From: Grimontia hollisae CIP 101886
GTDB taxonomy: Bacteria > Pseudomonadota > Gammaproteobacteria > Enterobacterales > Vibrionaceae
Reading direction: 5' to 3'
Assembly (NCBI RefSeq): GCF_000176515.1
Contig: NZ_ADAQ01000013.1
Coordinates: 1,361-25,360, forward strand
Length of the DNA stretch: 24,000 nucleotides
In this document: positions 4,482-21,515 of the stretch, piece after piece
How the letters are laid out: each line of letters opens with the position of its first letter
Numbering within the stretch: the first letter of the stretch is position 1
Program-made: the position numbers and the translations under genes
The notes under the pieces: model-generated
The model's database searches: none
Seen by the model: the letters and a program-made list of their open reading frames with translations, nothing else
What the model was told of the DNA's origin: nothing

Positions 4482-5918
<1,437 letters not shown>

Positions 5919-5952
5919 CTATCTCCGGTGAATCACGTTGGAATTGGAGGGG

Positions 5953-5985
5953 GAAGGGCTTGTCATGCTAGGCATACAGCCCTTC
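5953..5985 (-). other. Intercistronic stem-loop between ebgC and the transporter gene
   Basis: gaagggct (5953-5960) pairs perfectly with agcccttc (5978-5985), with extra inner pairs (atgc/gcat). The T-run lies only on the + strand side (5986-6000), so on the operon strand it is not a canonical terminator. Confidence 0.4.
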
Positions 5986-5992
5986 TCTTGTT

Positions 5993-9721
<3,729 letters not shown>

Positions 9722-9840
9722 TTAACTTGGTCACGTTTTATATGACCAATGTTGAGCAGGATGTGATCAGCGTAAAGGAATGCGTTTTCAACCGTTTTGG
9801 AAAGTAATAACAGTAAAATTTCGGTAGGAAATAGAAAGGG

Positions 9841-9868
9841 AAATAATAAAGCACTGAAAATTCAGTGC
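9841..9868 (-). terminator. Rho-independent terminator after ebgR
   Basis: Stem gcactga (9851-9857) / tcagtgc (9862-9868), loop aaat. On the minus strand it is followed by TTTATTATTT (rc of 9841-9850). Lies about 30 nt past the ebgR stop. Confidence 0.6.
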
Positions 9869-9896
9869 GTTATTTAAGCAGATTTGAGTCGGTTTT

Positions 9897-10928
<1,032 letters not shown>

Positions 10929-11094: not shown

Positions 11095-11110
11095 GTGGAA
11101 ACGTTTACAC
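11095..11110. promoter_or_regulatory. GalR/GalS operator upstream of galE
   Basis: GTGGAAACGTTTACAC. Its reverse complement GTGTAAACGTTTCCAC differs at one position from the E. coli gal OE sequence GTGTAAACGATTCCAC. Confidence 0.65.
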
Positions 11111-16014: not shown

Positions 16015-16030
16015 ATGGTATCGTTTACAC
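16015..16030. promoter_or_regulatory. Proximal GalR operator upstream of sglT
   Basis: ATGGTATCGTTTACAC. Its rc GTGTAAACGATACCAT is 14/16 to E. coli OE. It is 13/16 to the galE operator in this window. Lies 37 nt before the sglT ATG. Confidence 0.55.
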
Positions 16031-16066: not shown

Positions 16067-17698
16067 ATGTCTAATATAACGCATGGCCTTAGCGGTATTG
16101 ACATAATGGTATTCGCCATTTATGTCGCCATTATTATTGGTGTCGGGCTTTGGGTTTCCCGTGATAAAAAAGGGGCTCAAAAAAGTACAGAAGACTATTT
16201 CTTGGCGGGCAAATCTCTGCCTTGGTGGGCTGTTGGGGCATCCCTGATCGCTGCTAACATTTCTGCCGAGCAGTTTATCGGTATGTCTGGTTCAGGCTTT
16301 TCTATTGGTTTGGCCATTGCGTCATACGAATGGATGGCAGCCATTACGTTGATTATCGTCGGTAAATACTTCTTGCCTATTTTTATTGAAAAGGGCATCT
16401 ACACTATCCCCGAGTTTGTCGAGAAGCGTTTCAATAAGCAGCTTAAAACCATTTTAGCGATTTTCTGGATTTCACTTTACATTTTTGTCAACCTCACTTC
16501 TGTACTGTACTTGGGTGGTTTGGCGCTGGAAACGATTCTGGGCATCCCATTAATGTACTCAATTGTGGGTCTGGCTCTGTTTGCTTTGGTTTACTCAGTT
16601 TATGGTGGTCTATCTGCGGTCGTATGGACAGACGTGATTCAGGTATTCTTCCTGGTCCTCGGTGGCTTTATGACAACCTTTATGGCAGTGAGCTACATTG
16701 GAGGTGCTGATGGTTGGTTAGCCGGTATGTCAAAAATGGCGGAAGCAGCACCCGGTCACTTCGAGATGATCCTTGACCCAAGCAACCCACAATATATGAA
16801 CCTGCCTGGTATCGCAGTACTGATTGGTGGTCTGTGGGTAGCCAACTTGTACTATTGGGGGTTCAACCAGTACATCATCCAAAGAACATTGGCAGCGAAG
16901 TCCGTCGCGGAAGCGCAAAAAGGTATCGTATTTGCCGCATTCTTAAAACTTATTGTTCCATTCCTTGTGGTTATTCCAGGTATCGCTGCGTATGTCATCA
17001 CCTCTGATGCACAATTAATGGCGGGTCTTGGAGAAGCAGGGGCATCAAATTTACCTAGCGCGGCACATGCGGACAAAGCGTACCCTTGGTTGACTCAATT
17101 TCTCCCTGTTGGTGTGAAAGGCATCGTCTTTGCGGCACTGGCAGCTGCTATCGTGTCGTCACTGGCATCTATGCTTAACTCAACCGCAACCATTTTTACG
17201 ATGGACATCTACAAAGAGTACATTGCACCAGAGTCGGGTGACCATAAACTGGTTAACGTGGGTCGTGCGGCTGCGGTTTGTGCACTTGTCATTGCCTGTT
17301 TTATCGCCCCAATGCTAGGGGGTATCGGTCAAGCATTTCAATATATTCAAGAGTACACAGGTCTGGTTAGCCCAGGTATTCTAGCCGTGTTCCTGCTGGG
17401 TCTATTCTGGAAGAAAACAACCAGTAAAGGTGCCATTGTTGGTGTGATTGCGTCGATTCCATTCGCGTTGTTCTTAAAATTCATGCCACTATCAATGCCA
17501 TTCATGAATCAGATGCTATATACCTTGTTATTCACTATTGTAGTGATTGCGTTCACGAGTCTGAGTACTTCTGTTAACGATGACGATCCAAAAGGTATCA
17601 GCGTTACAGCCTCTTTGTTTGCGACTGATCGTAGTTTTAACATCGCGTCATACGGCATTATGATCATACTCACCGTGCTTTATACACTCTTCTGGTAA
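16067..17698 (+). CDS. sglT: Sodium/galactose(glucose) cotransporter, SSS family (vSGLT orthologue), 543 aa
   Basis: Same length as, and long identical stretches with, my recollection of V. parahaemolyticus vSGLT: MSNITHGLSGIDIMVFAIYVAIIIGVGLWVSRDKK..., YFLAGKSLPWWAVGASLIAANISAEQFIGMSGSG, ...VANLYYWGFNQYIIQRTLAAKS... Confidence 0.95.
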   Translation: MSNITHGLSGIDIMVFAIYVAIIIGVGLWVSRDKKGAQKSTEDYFLAGKSLPWWAVGASLIAANISAEQFIGMSGSGFSIGLAIASYEWMAAITLIIVGKYFLPIFIEKGIYTIPEFVEKRFNKQLKTILAIFWISLYIFVNLTSVLYLGGLALETILGIPLMYSIVGLALFALVYSVYGGLSAVVWTDVIQVFFLVLGGFMTTFMAVSYIGGADGWLAGMSKMAEAAPGHFEMILDPSNPQYMNLPGIAVLIGGLWVANLYYWGFNQYIIQRTLAAKSVAEAQKGIVFAAFLKLIVPFLVVIPGIAAYVITSDAQLMAGLGEAGASNLPSAAHADKAYPWLTQFLPVGVKGIVFAALAAAIVSSLASMLNSTATIFTMDIYKEYIAPESGDHKLVNVGRAAAVCALVIACFIAPMLGGIGQAFQYIQEYTGLVSPGILAVFLLGLFWKKTTSKGAIVGVIASIPFALFLKFMPLSMPFMNQMLYTLLFTIVVIAFTSLSTSVNDDDPKGISVTASLFATDRSFNIASYGIMIILTVLYTLFW

Positions 17699-17712
17699 GT
17701 AAACGGTTAATG

Positions 17713-17746
17713 AAGCTCCGCGATCACTGGCGGAGCTTTTTTGTTT
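17713..17746 (+). terminator. Rho-independent terminator after sglT
   Basis: Perfect 9-bp stem aagctccgc (17713-17721) / gcggagctt (17730-17738), followed by a T-run (TTTTTTGTTTT). Confidence 0.75.
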
Positions 17747-17799
17747 TGAACCGTTTTTCGTTTGTTATTTCTTTTCTTATGACGGGGGATGGAGAGCAG

Positions 17800-19644
17800 A
17801 TGGATTCTACTTTGCTACCTAATGTTGTTGCGTTTCTTAAAACGATTGACCCCTTCTCTCAGTTGCCGGATGAGACGTTAGACAGTATCGCCTGTGAAGC
17901 GGATATTTTGTTTTGGGGACAACAACAAAAAATGACGCTAAACGATGTCTCCGATCGTAGCTTGTATATCATCCGTTCAGGTGTGATCGAGCAGCGTTTT
18001 CCCAATGGTAATCTCAGGTCACGACTTGGTAAAAATGACCTGTTTGGTTTTAATTTAGCGCAAGACAACTACAGCATTGAAACCGTTGAAAGCTGCTTGG
18101 TATACAGGTTTAACTATACGTCGTTGCTCGAGAAACTCGTTAATTTTGAATCTGTTGTCGATCAACTCTCCAGTAGCGCCAACCACCGTCTAAAATCCCG
18201 GGTTGACAGTGAGTTGATGGAAGCAGGGAAGGGCATCTATTTTAAGCCGGTAAAAGAGGTCGCTTATTGCGATGTGGTGACGGTGACACCGAGTACATCG
18301 ATTCAGCAAGTGGCAAAACAGATGCGTGACCACCAAGGCAGTACCTGCGCATTGGTTCTTGATGATGGTGCGCTGGTAGGCATTGTCAGTCAGCGCAATC
18401 TCAGCAATCGCGTCGTAGCAGAAGCCATGGATGTTTCTGCCCCAATTCGCGATGTGATGACACCTGACCCCTACACTCTCAGGCAAGATGAATTGGTACT
18501 CTCTGCGGTTAATCTGATGATGAAGCACAATGTCCAACACGTCCCCATCATCGATGCAGATAAGCATGTCCTTGGTTTGGTTACGCCCAAGCAATTAGTG
18601 CAAAAACATGGCGTACAAGCCATCTACCTGATTGAAAAAATTCGCAATTGCAATACGTTAGATGCATTAGCAACGCTAACCCCGTTGCGCCAATCGGTAT
18701 TTGAGGCGATGGTCGAAGCGCGTATGCCCGCGCAGACTATTGGTCAAGTGCTGACGATGATTTACGATGTGTTTACTTCTCAATTGTTGAAGATGGCTGA
18801 GCAGGCCATTGGCAAGCCACCTTGTCGCTATGCCTGGATCGTTGCAGGATCGCATGCAAGGTCGGAAGTGCATTTAGGCTCAGATCAAGACAACGCTTTG
18901 GTGCTCGAAGATTGCGCGACAGAAGCGGATAGGATCTACTTTCAACATTTCGCCATGTTTGTCTGTAAAGGGTTGGCAGCATGTGGATACTCACTGTGCA
19001 GTGGGCGTTTTATGGCTGCGACGTCAAAATGGAATCAACCACTTTATATCTGGCGGCAATATTACCGAAAATGGGCGAACAACCCCGAATATGACATGTT
19101 GCTCAACCTGAATGTATTTTTAGAAATACGTTTGATAGCGGGAGATGAAAGCCTGTTTGAGCAATTAGAACAACATCGTCACCAGTGCGTGACACACAAC
19201 CCGCGCCTGATGTCTGCCTTGGTTAGAAATCTACTCAGAGAGCGACCACCACTTGGCATATTCAATAACTTAGTGTTAGAGAGGGATCAGAGTGATGGAA
19301 AAATGCTGAATATCAAAAAAGCAGCGATTGGTTTGCTGGTAGACATGGCAAGAATTTATGCGCTCAGTGAGGGGGGAGAAATGAATTCGACGGAGGAGCG
19401 AATTCAATTTGCCTATGACCAAGGACTCATCAACGAAAGCTCTTATCAAGATTTGATCGGCGCTTATCGCTATGTTACGCAACTGCGCTATACACATCAT
19501 CTCCACTGTATTAGAGAAGGACATGGTGTCAGCAACGCGATTTATCCTGAGCGATTTGGCAGTTTTGAACGTCAACATTTGAAAGATGCGTTTCGTATTA
19601 TTGGTGGTTATCAAGACGCGTTAAAAATGAAGTTTGGGTCTTAA
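17800..19644 (+). CDS. cNMP-binding-like + tandem CBS + DUF294 (GlnD-like) nucleotidyltransferase-domain protein, 614 aa
   Basis: Start set at the ATG at 17800 (GGAGAG RBS). The ORF-track N-terminal extension overlaps the sglT terminator. Two CBS motifs (VVTVTPSTSIQQVAKQM...ALVGIVSQRNL and VMTPDPYTLRQDELVLSAVNLMMKHNVQHVPII...VLGLVTPKQL). NTase core GSHARSEVHLGSDQD (nt 18847-18891). Helical C-terminal domain. Confidence 0.8.
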   Translation: MDSTLLPNVVAFLKTIDPFSQLPDETLDSIACEADILFWGQQQKMTLNDVSDRSLYIIRSGVIEQRFPNGNLRSRLGKNDLFGFNLAQDNYSIETVESCLVYRFNYTSLLEKLVNFESVVDQLSSSANHRLKSRVDSELMEAGKGIYFKPVKEVAYCDVVTVTPSTSIQQVAKQMRDHQGSTCALVLDDGALVGIVSQRNLSNRVVAEAMDVSAPIRDVMTPDPYTLRQDELVLSAVNLMMKHNVQHVPIIDADKHVLGLVTPKQLVQKHGVQAIYLIEKIRNCNTLDALATLTPLRQSVFEAMVEARMPAQTIGQVLTMIYDVFTSQLLKMAEQAIGKPPCRYAWIVAGSHARSEVHLGSDQDNALVLEDCATEADRIYFQHFAMFVCKGLAACGYSLCSGRFMAATSKWNQPLYIWRQYYRKWANNPEYDMLLNLNVFLEIRLIAGDESLFEQLEQHRHQCVTHNPRLMSALVRNLLRERPPLGIFNNLVLERDQSDGKMLNIKKAAIGLLVDMARIYALSEGGEMNSTEERIQFAYDQGLINESSYQDLIGAYRYVTQLRYTHHLHCIREGHGVSNAIYPERFGSFERQHLKDAFRIIGGYQDALKMKFGS

Positions 19645-19645
19645 C

Positions 19646-20365
19646 ATGTTTAAGAGAAATTCATGGAAAGCGGAAGGGTTAATCAATGAGCGAGTTTGCG
19701 CACAGCACCATTACCTTACAAGGGAACAGTGGCCATCTTCGTTGAGTGCGTTGATTGATATGCCACTACCAAGTGCATCTTCAGATCTTAAGTCACTTGA
19801 CACGCTGGTATTGGACTTTGAGACCAGTGGTCTTGACCCAGAGCAAGATAAGGTCCTGAGTATGGGCTGGGTTGAGATCCGCCAGAGCCAAATCCGCTTG
19901 AGCAGTGCTCGCCATATATTGGTGAATCAGCCTGTTTTGAACGGATATGAATCGGCAAGAATTCATCACCTAAGGCCAGAAACACTACGTAATTGTGGAG
20001 TGAGTGAGCACCATGCGTTTTCGCAACTGTTTGATGTAATGAAAGGGAAAGTCATAGTGGCTCATGGTAGCGTAATAGAAAAGCGCTTTTTAGCGCGTTA
20101 TCTCACTCTGCACTATGGACAAATCAATTTACCACTGGTTTGGCTCGATACATTAAAAATCGAACAATATCGTGAGCAGTTAAGACAGGTGTGCCGCGAT
20201 TGGCGTTTGAGCTCGGTAAGAGCGGCACACGGTTTACCGGACTACCAGGCACATAATGCACTCAATGACGCGATTGCCACAGCAGAGTTGTATTTAGCGC
20301 AAGTTCACCGCTTATTTGATCATCAACGCGCACCGTTGCATGTTTTGGCCCGTATTTCGAGTTAA
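19646..20365 (+). CDS. DEDDh 3'-5' exonuclease, DnaQ/epsilon-like, 239 aa
   Basis: ATG at 19646, one nt after the upstream TAA (19642-19644). Exo I LVLDFETSGLD, Exo II-like VIVAHGSVIEKRFL, Exo III HNALNDAIATAELYL. Confidence 0.8.
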   Translation: MFKRNSWKAEGLINERVCAQHHYLTREQWPSSLSALIDMPLPSASSDLKSLDTLVLDFETSGLDPEQDKVLSMGWVEIRQSQIRLSSARHILVNQPVLNGYESARIHHLRPETLRNCGVSEHHAFSQLFDVMKGKVIVAHGSVIEKRFLARYLTLHYGQINLPLVWLDTLKIEQYREQLRQVCRDWRLSSVRAAHGLPDYQAHNALNDAIATAELYLAQVHRLFDHQRAPLHVLARISS

Positions 20366-20379
20366 ATACGGTGGACTAA

Positions 20380-21369
20380 CTAAACCGAATTTCTACGCAC
20401 TAATGTTGGGCTGAAGATTGCCGGTTCTGCCTCGATGTTTTCTCCGCTCGCCAGTGCTAACGCTAATTTTGCCGCACGTTCTGCCATCATTTCGATGGGA
20501 TAACGAATAGTGGTTAACCCAGGACGGACGAAGCGTGCAATTAAACCGTCATCAAAGCCCACCAAGACCATATCCTTGGGCACGTTGATGCCGTTTTCCT
20601 CCAATACCGCCAGCGCCCCGGCGGCCATATAGTCGTTATAGGCAAACACGCCTGTAAAGGCTAACGATTTGGTGAGAAGCCGAGTCATTGCGATTTCGCC
20701 GCCATCACTGTTTGGTTCGCCGTATTCGATATAGCTTTTGGGCAGTTCAATACCGTGTGCATTCAGTGCAGCTTGATAGCCTTGCAAGCGTTGATGGGTA
20801 TCTTCGATATCATGAGACGATGCAATATGGGCAATGTTTTTGTGCCCGTGTCGTATTAAATACTCGGTCGCGATGAAGGCGCCTTTTTCATTATCGAGTG
20901 AAATACAACGTCCCGCCAATTGAGGAATATGGCGGTTGATCAGTACCATCCCCTTGACTTCATTCGCGTAGCCGACCAATTCTTCATCTGACAGTGCTTT
21001 GGCGTGAATGACCATCGCATCACACCTGCTGTGGATCAGCAACTCAAGAGCACGGCGTTCATCGTCGGCGTTATGGTATCCGTTACCGATTAACAAGTGC
21101 TTTCCCTGTTTATGCGCAATGCGATCTACCGACTTGATCATCGTACCAAAAAAGGGGTCAGAGACATCACCGACCAACACACCCATGGTATTGGTGCTTT
21201 GGCTAACCAGTGCGCGTGCGGCTGCATTGGGCCGGTAGCCTAATTTACTCATGGCTTTAGTGACCGAGTCGATAGAGGCTTGGCTCGCTTTAGGAGATTT
21301 ATTGAGTACACGGGAAACCGTCGCGACGGAAACGCCAGCTTCCTTTGCAACATCTTTGATCGTCGCCAT
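20380..21369 (-). CDS. galR: LacI-family galactose repressor GalR/GalS, 329 aa
   Basis: [29 protein letters not shown]...GVLVGDVSDPFFG...LLIGNGYHN...RLQGY...FGEP...GGE.AM..LL...LTT.RYPI..MA..AA.LALALA...FSPTLVRRNSV is colinear with E. coli GalR as I recall it. Confidence 0.85.
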   Translation of the reverse strand: MATIKDVAKEAGVSVATVSRVLNKSPKASQASIDSVTKAMSKLGYRPNAAARALVSQSTNTMGVLVGDVSDPFFGTMIKSVDRIAHKQGKHLLIGNGYHNADDERRALELLIHSRCDAMVIHAKALSDEELVGYANEVKGMVLINRHIPQLAGRCISLDNEKGAFIATEYLIRHGHKNIAHIASSHDIEDTHQRLQGYQAALNAHGIELPKSYIEYGEPNSDGGEIAMTRLLTKSLAFTGVFAYNDYMAAGALAVLEENGINVPKDMVLVGFDDGLIARFVRPGLTTIRYPIEMMAERAAKLALALASGENIEAEPAIFSPTLVRRNSV

Positions 21370-21499: not shown

Positions 21500-21515
21500 A
21501 TGTATACGTTTACAG
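21500..21515. promoter_or_regulatory. GalR-like operator in the galR upstream region (possible autoregulation)
   Basis: ATGTATACGTTTACAG contains the near-palindrome TGTATACGTTTACA. Lies 131 nt upstream of the galR start codon. Confidence 0.45.

Follow-up and report, generated by a model that had tools for sequence, protein, structure and literature searches.

The window analysed here is a stretch of 24,000 nucleotides from Grimontia hollisae CIP 101886 (contig NZ_ADAQ01000013.1, positions 1,361 to 25,360 of the forward strand), in which the gene for the sodium/galactose symporter SglT is directly followed by two closely coupled genes encoding a large sensor nucleotidyltransferase and a DnaQ-like exonuclease. 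It is an unexceptional example of a gene pair that is widespread and has drawn mention in earlier papers, but has never been characterised. vSGLT, of which SglT is an orthologue, is a structural model for the human SGLTs and among the best-studied bacterial transporters, and the copy of the pair that follows its gene is a convenient model system. The genes in question are as follows:

16067..17698, + strand: sglT, sodium/galactose symporter of the sodium:solute symporter (SSS) family, vSGLT orthologue (Pfam SSF 238 bits; PDB match)
17800..19644, + strand: sensor nucleotidyltransferase (NTase) gene, 614 aa, with a cyclic-nucleotide-binding-like (CNB-like) domain, a CBS pair, a DUF294 NTase core and DUF294_C (Pfam; AlphaFold2 model)
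19646..20365, + strand: DnaQ-like DEDDh-type exonuclease gene, 239 aa (Pfam, alignments, AlphaFold2 model)
20380..21369, - strand: galR/galS-like LacI-family repressor gene, convergent with the pair (NCBIfam GalR 463 and GalS 430 bits; Pfam LacI and Peripla_BP)

An open reading frame at 17710-19644 (+) holds the ATG at 17800, preceded at 5-10 nt by a GGAGAG Shine-Dalgarno sequence, which gives a protein of 614 aa. Its TAA stop (19642-19644) is separated by one base (C) from the ATG at 19646 that opens the second reading frame, which runs to 20365 and encodes 239 aa. Both frames are long and have strong family matches, well beyond what chance would give. A sequence-only reading of this DNA had described the two frames, the 1-nt junction, the domains and the catalytic motifs, and all of these are reproduced by open reading frame calling, Pfam and motif mapping, with each quoted motif at the position that had been given for it. 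It had also named the upstream gene as SglT, which is correct: the protein matches vSGLT with 1079 bits (PDB 2xq2, residues 1-543) and 997 bits (3dh4), scores 429 bits against NCBIfam TIGR00813 (cut-off 184), and is 92% identical to the copy in V. parahaemolyticus, where the gene order is alike.

The transferase is built from four parts, the first two of a sensory kind and the last two forming the catalytic half:

17956..18135, + strand: degenerate CNB-like domain, residues 53-112, without the Glu and Arg of the phosphate-binding cassette (sub-threshold Pfam, alignment)
18247..18609, + strand: CBS pair, residues ~150-270 (Pfam, PDB matches)
18694..19089, + strand: DUF294 pol-beta-type nucleotidyltransferase core, residues 299-430 (Pfam, invariant motif, GlnE fold similarity)
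19201..19635, + strand: DUF294_C helical 'substrate-binding' domain of the KNTase_C clan (Pfam PF10335)

The catalytic half is assigned with wide margins, DUF294 (PF03445) scoring 145 bits at residues 299-430 against a cut-off of 21, and DUF294_C (PF10335) 131 bits at residues 468-612 against 22.5; the latter domain has a clan relationship to the C-terminal domains of GlnD and GlnE (PMC3710099). The CBS pair reaches 79 bits in two stretches and matches many CBS proteins in the PDB. The N-terminal domain scores 21 bits against cNMP_binding (PF00027, residues 53-112), under the cut-off of 27.5, so that it falls outside the canonical cyclic-nucleotide-binding family and the label 'cNMP-like' is apt. 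Its phosphate-binding cassette, LFGFNLAQDNYSIETVES, had been described as lacking the conserved Arg, and an alignment of 73 homologues agrees: Phe82, Gly83 and Tyr91 are invariant and Phe84 nearly so, FGF replaces FGE, and the canonical Glu and Arg are absent throughout, which makes canonical binding of cAMP or cGMP unlikely. The nucleotidyltransferase motif, Gly350-Ser351-x10-Asp362-x-Asp364 (nt 18847-18891), was rightly called intact, being invariant in alignments of 18 and 73 homologues; the core is thus not dead. A third acid, Glu442 in VFLEIR (nt 19123-19125), is Glu or Asp in all 18 sequences of the smaller alignment (A1). The CBS pair holds a peculiarity of its own in its first repeat, where at least 90% of the family have Thr-Asp in the form G-x-x-T-D-[KR]-D, and the window and its closest relatives have G-I-V-S-Q-R-N instead (residues 197-200, S197-Q198-R-N200; nt 18388-18399). 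Judged by this substitution, CBS1 in the window's clade has lost the kind of residue that commonly touches the ribose in adenosyl ligands, which weakens the assumption of an adenosyl ligand at CBS1 for the 614-aa protein.

The AlphaFold2 model of the transferase (predicted local distance difference test score, pLDDT, 87.3; predicted template modelling score, pTM, 0.81) was compared with solved structures using Foldseek. For the N-terminal half, CBS pairs are the main matches and CRP is a weaker one, with M. tuberculosis CRP at rank 39. The catalytic half resembles both the adenylyl-removing and the adenylyl-transferring domain of GlnE (1v4a, 3k7d) over ~380-390 columns (TMt 0.47-0.53, E ~2e-7). 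No HD domain and no second NTase domain is found in the transferase by Pfam. Among the 150 best transferase representatives, the arrangement of CNB-like domain, CBS pair and C-terminal NTase in 600-650 aa is the dominant architecture.

The second protein belongs to the RNase_T family (PF00929, 47.9 bits, cut-off 24) and carries the three motifs of a DEDDh exonuclease:

19814..19831, + strand: Exo I, DFETSG, residues 57-62
20063..20089, + strand: Exo II, with VIEKRF at residues 143-148
20252..20269, + strand: Exo III, HNALND, residues 203-208

Exo I and Exo III had been read as intact and Exo II as carrying a Glu, and both statements hold. Glu145 occupies the position that the Exo II Asp has in the exonuclease domain of T. 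maritima PolC, so that the canonical Asp is missing there. Together with Asp57, Glu59, His140, Asp168, Thr169, Arg192, Tyr200, His203, Asp208 and Glu214, it is invariant in 78 of 78 locus-derived and 81 of 81 database homologues. A Glu fixed to this degree is a family hallmark (D-E-E-D-h) and not decay, and with the Exo II carboxylate kept, exonuclease activity is likely on the evidence of the residues. The family also has its own N-terminal extension of ~50 aa. The best NCBIfam match, NF006602 (PRK09146), reaches 124.6 bits, below its curated cut-off of 266, so the protein lies outside that subfamily. The AlphaFold2 model (pLDDT 89.2) retrieves DnaQ, the PolC exonuclease domain, DinG and epsilon at E 1e-10 to 1e-11, and also a Cas-associated DnaQ domain, ExoI, RNase T, Cap18 and REXO2; these model-based matches point to the DnaQ fold in general and do not discriminate within it. 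One further invariant feature in the same 78 and 81 sequences is L-P-x-Y-x-x-H, in which Tyr200 (nt 20243-20245) stands three residues before the catalytic His203. This motif is not known from epsilon or RNase T, and Tyr200 could be a substrate contact or a modification site.

How widely the two genes travel together was assessed by scanning one genome per species, which gave 508 species with a relative; the best 80 loci, three V. cholerae-type loci and the window were analysed, 84 in all. Clustering places the exonuclease gene directly downstream of the transferase gene on the same strand in 78 of the 84 loci, and a profile search does so in 79. The gap between them is -7 to +8 nt in 57 of the 78, and 21 of these 57 are TAATG overlaps; some of the larger gaps are an artefact of ATG-only start calling. 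The pairwise identity values of the transferases and of the exonucleases are correlated at r = 0.83, in part through shared phylogeny. The pair is also found in Aeromonas, Serratia, Colwellia, a Motiliproteus metagenome-assembled genome, plasmid-like enterobacterial contigs and an acs-linked metagenome contig, and with the Pseudomonas genes discussed below the expectation of conservation beyond close relatives is well supported. The two proteins stay separate: there are no fusions among 120 exonuclease homologues, no RNase_T domain in the 8 long transferase variants scanned with Pfam, and the NTase is always C-terminal in the 150 representatives. DUF294 genes without a downstream exonuclease occur in Psychromonas (our loci L022-L025), where an HlyD/AcrB-type efflux pair is found instead, and in Reinekea (L063).

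The gene pair is associated with SSS symporters, a link that had been proposed and that the neighbourhood counts uphold. Of the 84 loci, 50 have an SSS gene no more than 8 kb away, and within the window's clade (at least 49% identity) an SglT orthologue is immediately upstream on the same strand in 22 of 23. This adjacency persists in Tolumonas, Mangrovibacter, Rosenbergiella and Celerinatantimonas without adjoining gal genes. In the next clade (43-46% identity), copies sit within alginate loci alongside alginate lyases, the KdgM porin, KdgK, Eda, a cupin, a GntR regulator and an SSS transporter, and some sit in KdgR-type uronate clusters. Further contexts are an oligogalacturonate lyase in Aeromonas, a heparinase-like enzyme with an SSS transporter in Serratia, GH65 with a beta-phosphoglucomutase-like protein and an SSS transporter in Motiliproteus, DUF4212 plus SSS in Colwellia, and Acs-DUF4212-SSS beside the pair in one metagenome contig. 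The SSS kinds beside DUF294 genes comprise SglT, the alginate-locus and GH65-locus transporters, DUF4212+SSS, DUF485+SSS and ActP, at least four subfamilies. The sequence-only reading had placed the pair usually next to acs/actP, which is true of Pseudomonas and some metagenome contigs and does not apply to the window's branch, where Acs is within 8 kb in none of the 84 loci. In several genomes there are two pairs, each in its own catabolic locus, and this suggests a locus-specific function. Locus L093 (3090-8510) has two DUF294 genes back to back beside Acs-DUF4212-SSS, one with a normal RNase_T partner and the other in stop/start overlap with a gene for a 189-aa protein without a family match.

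An exhaustive search by the catalytic half alone reaches 3,511 representative clusters (50% identity), 711 of them at E <= 1e-30. In its longer members, sCache_2 or dCache_2 and PAS domains, with or without CBS, stand ahead of DUF294; one such member has an N-terminal PHP domain and another an AP_endonuc_2 domain. When metagenomes were scanned with these Cache-type proteins, 80 loci were retrieved, 79 of them scorable, and their main partner gene is a different one. A Metallophos phosphoesterase of ~250 aa is present in 44 of the 79, directly adjacent in 41, and a DEDDh exonuclease in 1; in the CBS-type loci, DEDDh is present in 79 of 84 and Metallophos in none. SSS genes, here with DUF485 or DUF4212 small subunits, again accompany the transferase (45 of 79), and 12 of the loci have a gene for a CRP-like cNMP-binding transcription factor nearby. 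Downstream of the PHP-fused variant there is no partner gene on the same strand. The Metallophos partners come nearest, by weak matches, to phosphodiesterases of the YfcE/MJ0936 type, and a weak match to CpdA is also seen. Since three unrelated metal-dependent phosphoesterase folds occupy one slot, the partner's job would be to hydrolyse a phosphodiester made by the transferase, and this displacement is the strongest new argument for a transferase/hydrolase logic. The substrate that such phosphoesterases can share is an NMP-O-R diester (NMP, nucleoside monophosphate) with a free 3'-OH, R being a protein side chain, a nucleotide or an RNA end. The pairing of a transferase with a hydrolase that removes its product, as first supposed for this locus, gains from the Metallophos/PHP replacement, which makes no choice among a protein, an RNA and a nucleotide-signal target. 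Also present in 26 Cache-type loci (L095-L175, e.g. L147 5662-6879), directly after the DUF485/DUF4212-SSS genes, is a gene for a ~406-aa protein with no Pfam or NCBIfam match.

Published genetics exist for the pair in Pseudomonas, where PP_0354/PP_0353 (P. putida), PA3233/PA3232 (P. aeruginosa) and Pflu5625 (P. fluorescens) are a direct and strongly dependent target of MxtR/ErdR (CrbS/CrbR), a system with an SSS-domain sensor kinase, and are co-regulated with actP and acs; in P. aeruginosa, the pair adjoins actP and yjcH. On pyruvate, P. putida mutants in the exonuclease, actP-I and yjcH are impaired and the transferase mutant is not. On propionate, both pair mutants grow worse and the actP-I mutant is unaffected. 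On 20 mM acetate, neither pair mutant shows a phenotype, and a transferase mutant of P. fluorescens shows none either. Fitness data of Price et al. (preprint) list a gene described as 'COG2905 (RNAse T domain protein)' as cofit with an adjacent DUF4212/SSS lactate/D-alanine symporter in S. amazonensis (Sama_1522-1525) and P. stutzeri (Psest_0346-0349), with the speculation that the COG2905 gene is needed for symporter expression, while Henriquez et al. speculate on mRNA degradation. The statement that no function has been established holds for the literature as of September 2026, when a preprint still calls the function unclear. The RefSeq names of the pair are generic, and in a 2021 review of prokaryotic SSS transporters the terms CBS, exonuclease and nucleotidyltransferase are all absent. 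What is new here is that the link widens from actP to several SSS subfamilies and to sugar and uronate loci, that the Exo II Glu is fixed, that a non-homologous enzyme replaces the exonuclease in the Cache-type branch, and that one copy directly follows vSGLT.

Several known systems resemble the window's pair in part. The Pseudomonas pair, by the papers' descriptions, likewise consists of a cNMP-like/2xCBS/nucleotidyltransferase followed by an RNase_T-family exonuclease, but belongs to an acetate/pyruvate regulon, whereas in the window the pair comes after sglT, within a galactose locus that has a GalR-type repressor and no Acs gene nearby. The DUF4212/SSS loci with a 'COG2905' gene share the adjacency of a pair gene and an SSS symporter, an arrangement also seen in Colwellia and in metagenome contigs, and differ in having another SSS subfamily with a small subunit and with lactate and D-alanine as substrates. 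GlnE and GlnD have the same plan of a pol-beta core with a helical KNTase_C-clan domain, and GlnE is the best solved structural match to the catalytic half. Theirs is a sensor-controlled, reversible protein NMPylation (GlnE on glutamine synthetase, GlnD on PII), and this is the likeness that we propose for the window pair. They differ in that removal is performed by a second NTase domain (phosphorolysis) or an HD domain, while in the window pair it would fall to a separate DEDDh hydrolase (or elsewhere Metallophos or PHP); their sensors are ACT domains rather than CNB-like and CBS domains; and glutamine synthetase and PII are, by context, not the target here. With the DnaQ-like DEDDh enzymes (Pol III epsilon, PolC, the DinG N-domain, RNase T, Orn/REXO2 and Cap18), the window's exonuclease shares the fold, the D-x-E of Exo I and the H-x4-D of Exo III. 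It is set apart from them by the Exo II Glu, the N-terminal extension and the L-P-x-Y-x-x-H motif, and its family is always paired with a DUF294 transferase, not with a polymerase or helicase. The MntA-HepT and minimal NTase-HEPN pairs are similar tight two-gene units of a pol-beta transferase and a nuclease, with a related KNTase_C-clan C-terminal domain; in the window, however, the partner is DEDDh and not HEPN, the transferase is large and fused to sensors, and the setting is catabolic, with neither a PADLOC system nor a defence context. A defence system of the CBASS/CD-NTase kind was considered and rejected, as PADLOC has no match to the transferase and its matches to the exonuclease are all generic DEDDh models.

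The reading that we favour, tentatively and with somewhat less than even confidence, is that the pair forms an antagonistic nucleotidylylation switch, a sensor-controlled NMP writer and a phosphodiesterase eraser that tune symporter-dependent uptake, which at this locus would be uptake by SglT under Gal control. Here, the degenerate CNB-like domain and the CBS pair of the 614-aa writer would sense an intracellular ligand and control the GlnE/GlnD-like pol-beta NTase, which would place an NMP in phosphodiester linkage on a hydroxyl of its target. The co-translated DnaQ-like eraser would hydrolyse the NMP-O-R bond and release 5'-NMP, and the balance of the two would set uptake of the carbon source. 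DEDDh enzymes such as epsilon cleave the p-nitrophenyl ester of TMP, in which, much as in Tyr-NMP, a phenol and an NMP are joined as a diester. The observed side of this reading comprises the domain architecture, catalytic residues that are intact, close gene coupling, joint conservation, repeated association with SSS genes and the partner replacement. To it three suppositions are added: the hydrolase would remove the very product of the transferase; the target would be a protein rather than RNA, in the simplest case the symporter, its small subunit or some factor that it needs; and writing would be inhibitory and erasing permissive, as the pyruvate genetics and the silent transferase mutants suggest. 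A bolder version, which we consider unlikely as a whole, is a three-part system in which the SSS transporter or its small subunit is switched by direct, reversible NMPylation, with an interchangeable eraser (DEDDh with an Exo II Glu, Metallophos or PHP) and a sensor that is either cytoplasmic (CNB-like/CBS) or periplasmic (sCache). Were that system real, it would be the first in which nucleotidylylation controls a transporter, and it would give a DnaQ-fold enzyme a catalytic role not known before.

A number of observations weigh against the switch that we favour. We know of no DEDDh enzyme that removes NMP from a protein, and the known pairs of a transferase with a DEDDh enzyme act on RNA 3' ends or oligonucleotides. 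The likeness to GlnE is one of fold only: a profile of the catalytic half finds 0 matches among PDB sequences at E <= 10, the full-length transferase finds CBS proteins only, and GlnD and GlnE models are absent from its NCBIfam matches, so that it has a GlnE-like scaffold and stands outside the GlnE/GlnD families. Across the window's clade, SglT is 84-97% identical, the transferase 49-86% and the exonuclease 38-77%, and a fast-evolving pair beside a very conserved SglT gives no sign of a tightly co-evolving interface with the transporter. There is no SSS gene within 6-8 kb of the copies in KdgR-type clusters, in the Aeromonas Ogl locus, in Psychromonas, in Reinekea and in P. putida near glcB. 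The propionate data show that a simple scheme in which the writer inhibits ActP is incomplete, and the wording of Price et al. is ambiguous on which gene of the pair is cofit. Finally, the DUF294 transferases are a large family (the 3,511 clusters above) in which biochemical activity has been demonstrated for no member and a target identified for none.

Other explanations, which agree with most of the same evidence, divide it differently. DUF294 might instead make a linear (oligo)nucleotide signal, which the DEDDh enzyme (elsewhere Metallophos or PHP) would degrade as Orn does pGpG, with a receptor controlling expression or activity of the symporter. We judge such a messenger improbable, although it accounts for the placing of DUF294 like an output domain, C-terminal to sCache_2/PAS/CBS sensors in membrane receptors, for the 12 Cache-type loci with an adjoining CRP-like transcription factor, and for the weak closeness of the Metallophos partners to YfcE/MJ0936 phosphodiesterases and CpdA; the CNB-like domain could sense the product, and the P. 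putida genetics fit equally well, loss of the degrader being harmful and loss of the synthase silent. However, the closest fold is that of GlnE, a protein adenylyltransferase, CD-NTases and OAS are absent from the 50 listed matches of Foldseek, the transferase matches nothing CD-NTase-like in PADLOC, and no dedicated receptor gene is conserved in CBS-type loci. DEDDh enzymes need a free 3' end, which excludes cyclic products. A scheme like that of MntA-HepT would make the phosphoesterase itself the effector, required for symporter expression or function, and have the transferase nucleotidylylate it according to energy or ligand state, for example at Tyr200 near His203. The tight translational coupling suggests a stoichiometric complex, L-P-x-Y200-x-x-H203 is invariant, DUF294_C is in a KNTase_C/HEPN-related clan, and exonuclease mutants have a phenotype where transferase mutants mostly have none; the speculation that the gene is required for symporter expression (Price et al.) would also agree. 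Yet, with Metallophos and PHP as replacements, the transferase would need to recognise proteins that differ greatly, neither toxicity nor a nuclease substrate is in evidence, and on propionate the transferase mutant is impaired too, and we hold this scheme to be quite unlikely.

The terminator-like hairpin that separates sglT from the pair across the clade (described below) bears on two further explanations. One supposes a writer and eraser of RNA 3' ends, in which untemplated tails on the symporter mRNA ending at the hairpin, or on tRNA, are trimmed by the exonuclease to set stability, comparable to PAPD5/PARN or to the CCA-adding enzyme and RNase T. It draws on these precedents for a pol-beta transferase with a DEDDh nuclease, on the hairpin itself, on the nearness of the exonuclease fold to enzymes of nucleic-acid 3' ends and on the mRNA-degradation speculation of Henriquez et al., but the transferase has no recognisable RNA-binding domain and is closest in fold to GlnE, the ~250-aa Metallophos partners are nearest to small-molecule phosphodiesterases (YfcE/MJ0936) and not to RNases, and no RNA element is conserved, Rfam finding nothing and the intergenic sequences differing. 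We therefore regard it as distinctly unlikely. The other takes the pair for a general stress or DNA/RNA housekeeping module that hitch-hikes in catabolic islands and has no tie to the transporter, as the hairpin, the loci without a nearby SSS gene and the mild mutant phenotypes would allow. Against it stand the SSS link, which recurs in many genera, with two architectures of the transferase and with four or more SSS subfamilies, the two pairs per genome in several genomes, each in another catabolic locus, the MxtR/ErdR co-regulation with actP and acs, and the cofitness with the symporter; it is already disfavoured and seems to us very improbable.

The recurrence of DUF294 genes beside sodium:solute symporters for sugars, uronates and short-chain carboxylates extends over Vibrio, Shewanella, Colwellia, Pseudomonas, enterobacteria and uncultured lineages. 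The alternation of exonuclease and Metallophos/PHP partners turns a vague 'signal-transduction protein' annotation into the testable idea of a transferase/hydrolase switch. If the favoured switch is true and its target is the transporter or its mRNA, it would be a new layer of control over carbon uptake in systems outside the phosphotransferase system (non-PTS).

Around the pair, the window carries galE, galT, galK, galM and sglT upstream, with a lacZ/LacI block and an IS110 transposase gene further up; downstream, on the opposite strand, the GalR/GalS-like repressor gene is followed by pyrC. The repressor's GalR and GalS scores (463 and 430 bits) are both under the equivalog cut-offs of ~555, and its position is kept in the V. 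cholerae, V. parahaemolyticus and Salinivibrio loci. Two candidate regulatory elements flank sglT:

16015..16030, + strand: GalR/LacI-type operator-like site ATGGTATCGTTTACAC, 2 mismatches to GTGNAANCGNTTNCAC, just upstream of sglT (motif scan)
17712..17749, + strand: intrinsic-terminator-like hairpin (10-bp stem, 6 GC pairs) with a T-run, between sglT and the DUF294 gene (sequence inspection)

In nearly every locus of the window's clade, sglT is followed by a hairpin and T-run, kept in position but differing in sequence between genera. Between this hairpin and the ATG at 17800, no sigma-70 promoter-like site was seen; the motif scan of the window places no GalR-type operator between sglT and the DUF294 gene; and Rfam, at gathering thresholds, reports no riboswitch or known RNA in this spacer or the rest of the window. 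Other operator-like sites are a perfect one at 11095-11110 before galE and one with 3 mismatches at 21500-21515 before galR. The total number of such hits in the window is no higher than chance, so that the positions alone are suggestive.

The lactose-type block beside the gal genes (4482-10916, -) encodes a second LacI-family regulator, a GH2 beta-galactosidase (1055 aa), a YhcH/DUF386 protein and an APC-family permease, and such a block also accompanies the sglT-DUF294-exonuclease triad in Aliivibrio loci L017-L020. The IS110-family transposase gene (544-1593, -) lies at the edge of the lac/gal region. On V. cholerae-type contigs, the galETKM-sglT-DUF294-exonuclease-galR block has IS110 and IS3 elements, a type I restriction-modification system and an integrase on its flanks, and copies with 86% identity occur in records labelled V. 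cholerae, V. parahaemolyticus, Salinivibrio, Citrobacter and Shewanella; the block has the look of a galactose island that moves horizontally. A second setting is found on large plasmid-like enterobacterial contigs (L086 4434-8714, and L087), where a triad of SSS (543 aa), DUF294 and exonuclease genes is flanked by Tn3/IS1/IS6-type elements and ParA/ParG genes and adjoined by an EAL-domain protein. The exonuclease sequence of this triad is indexed in 546 blocks of the sequence collection that was scanned and is absent from the plasmid collection PLSDB at megablast sensitivity, where the sole match to the module is a Salinivibrio replicon at 76%.

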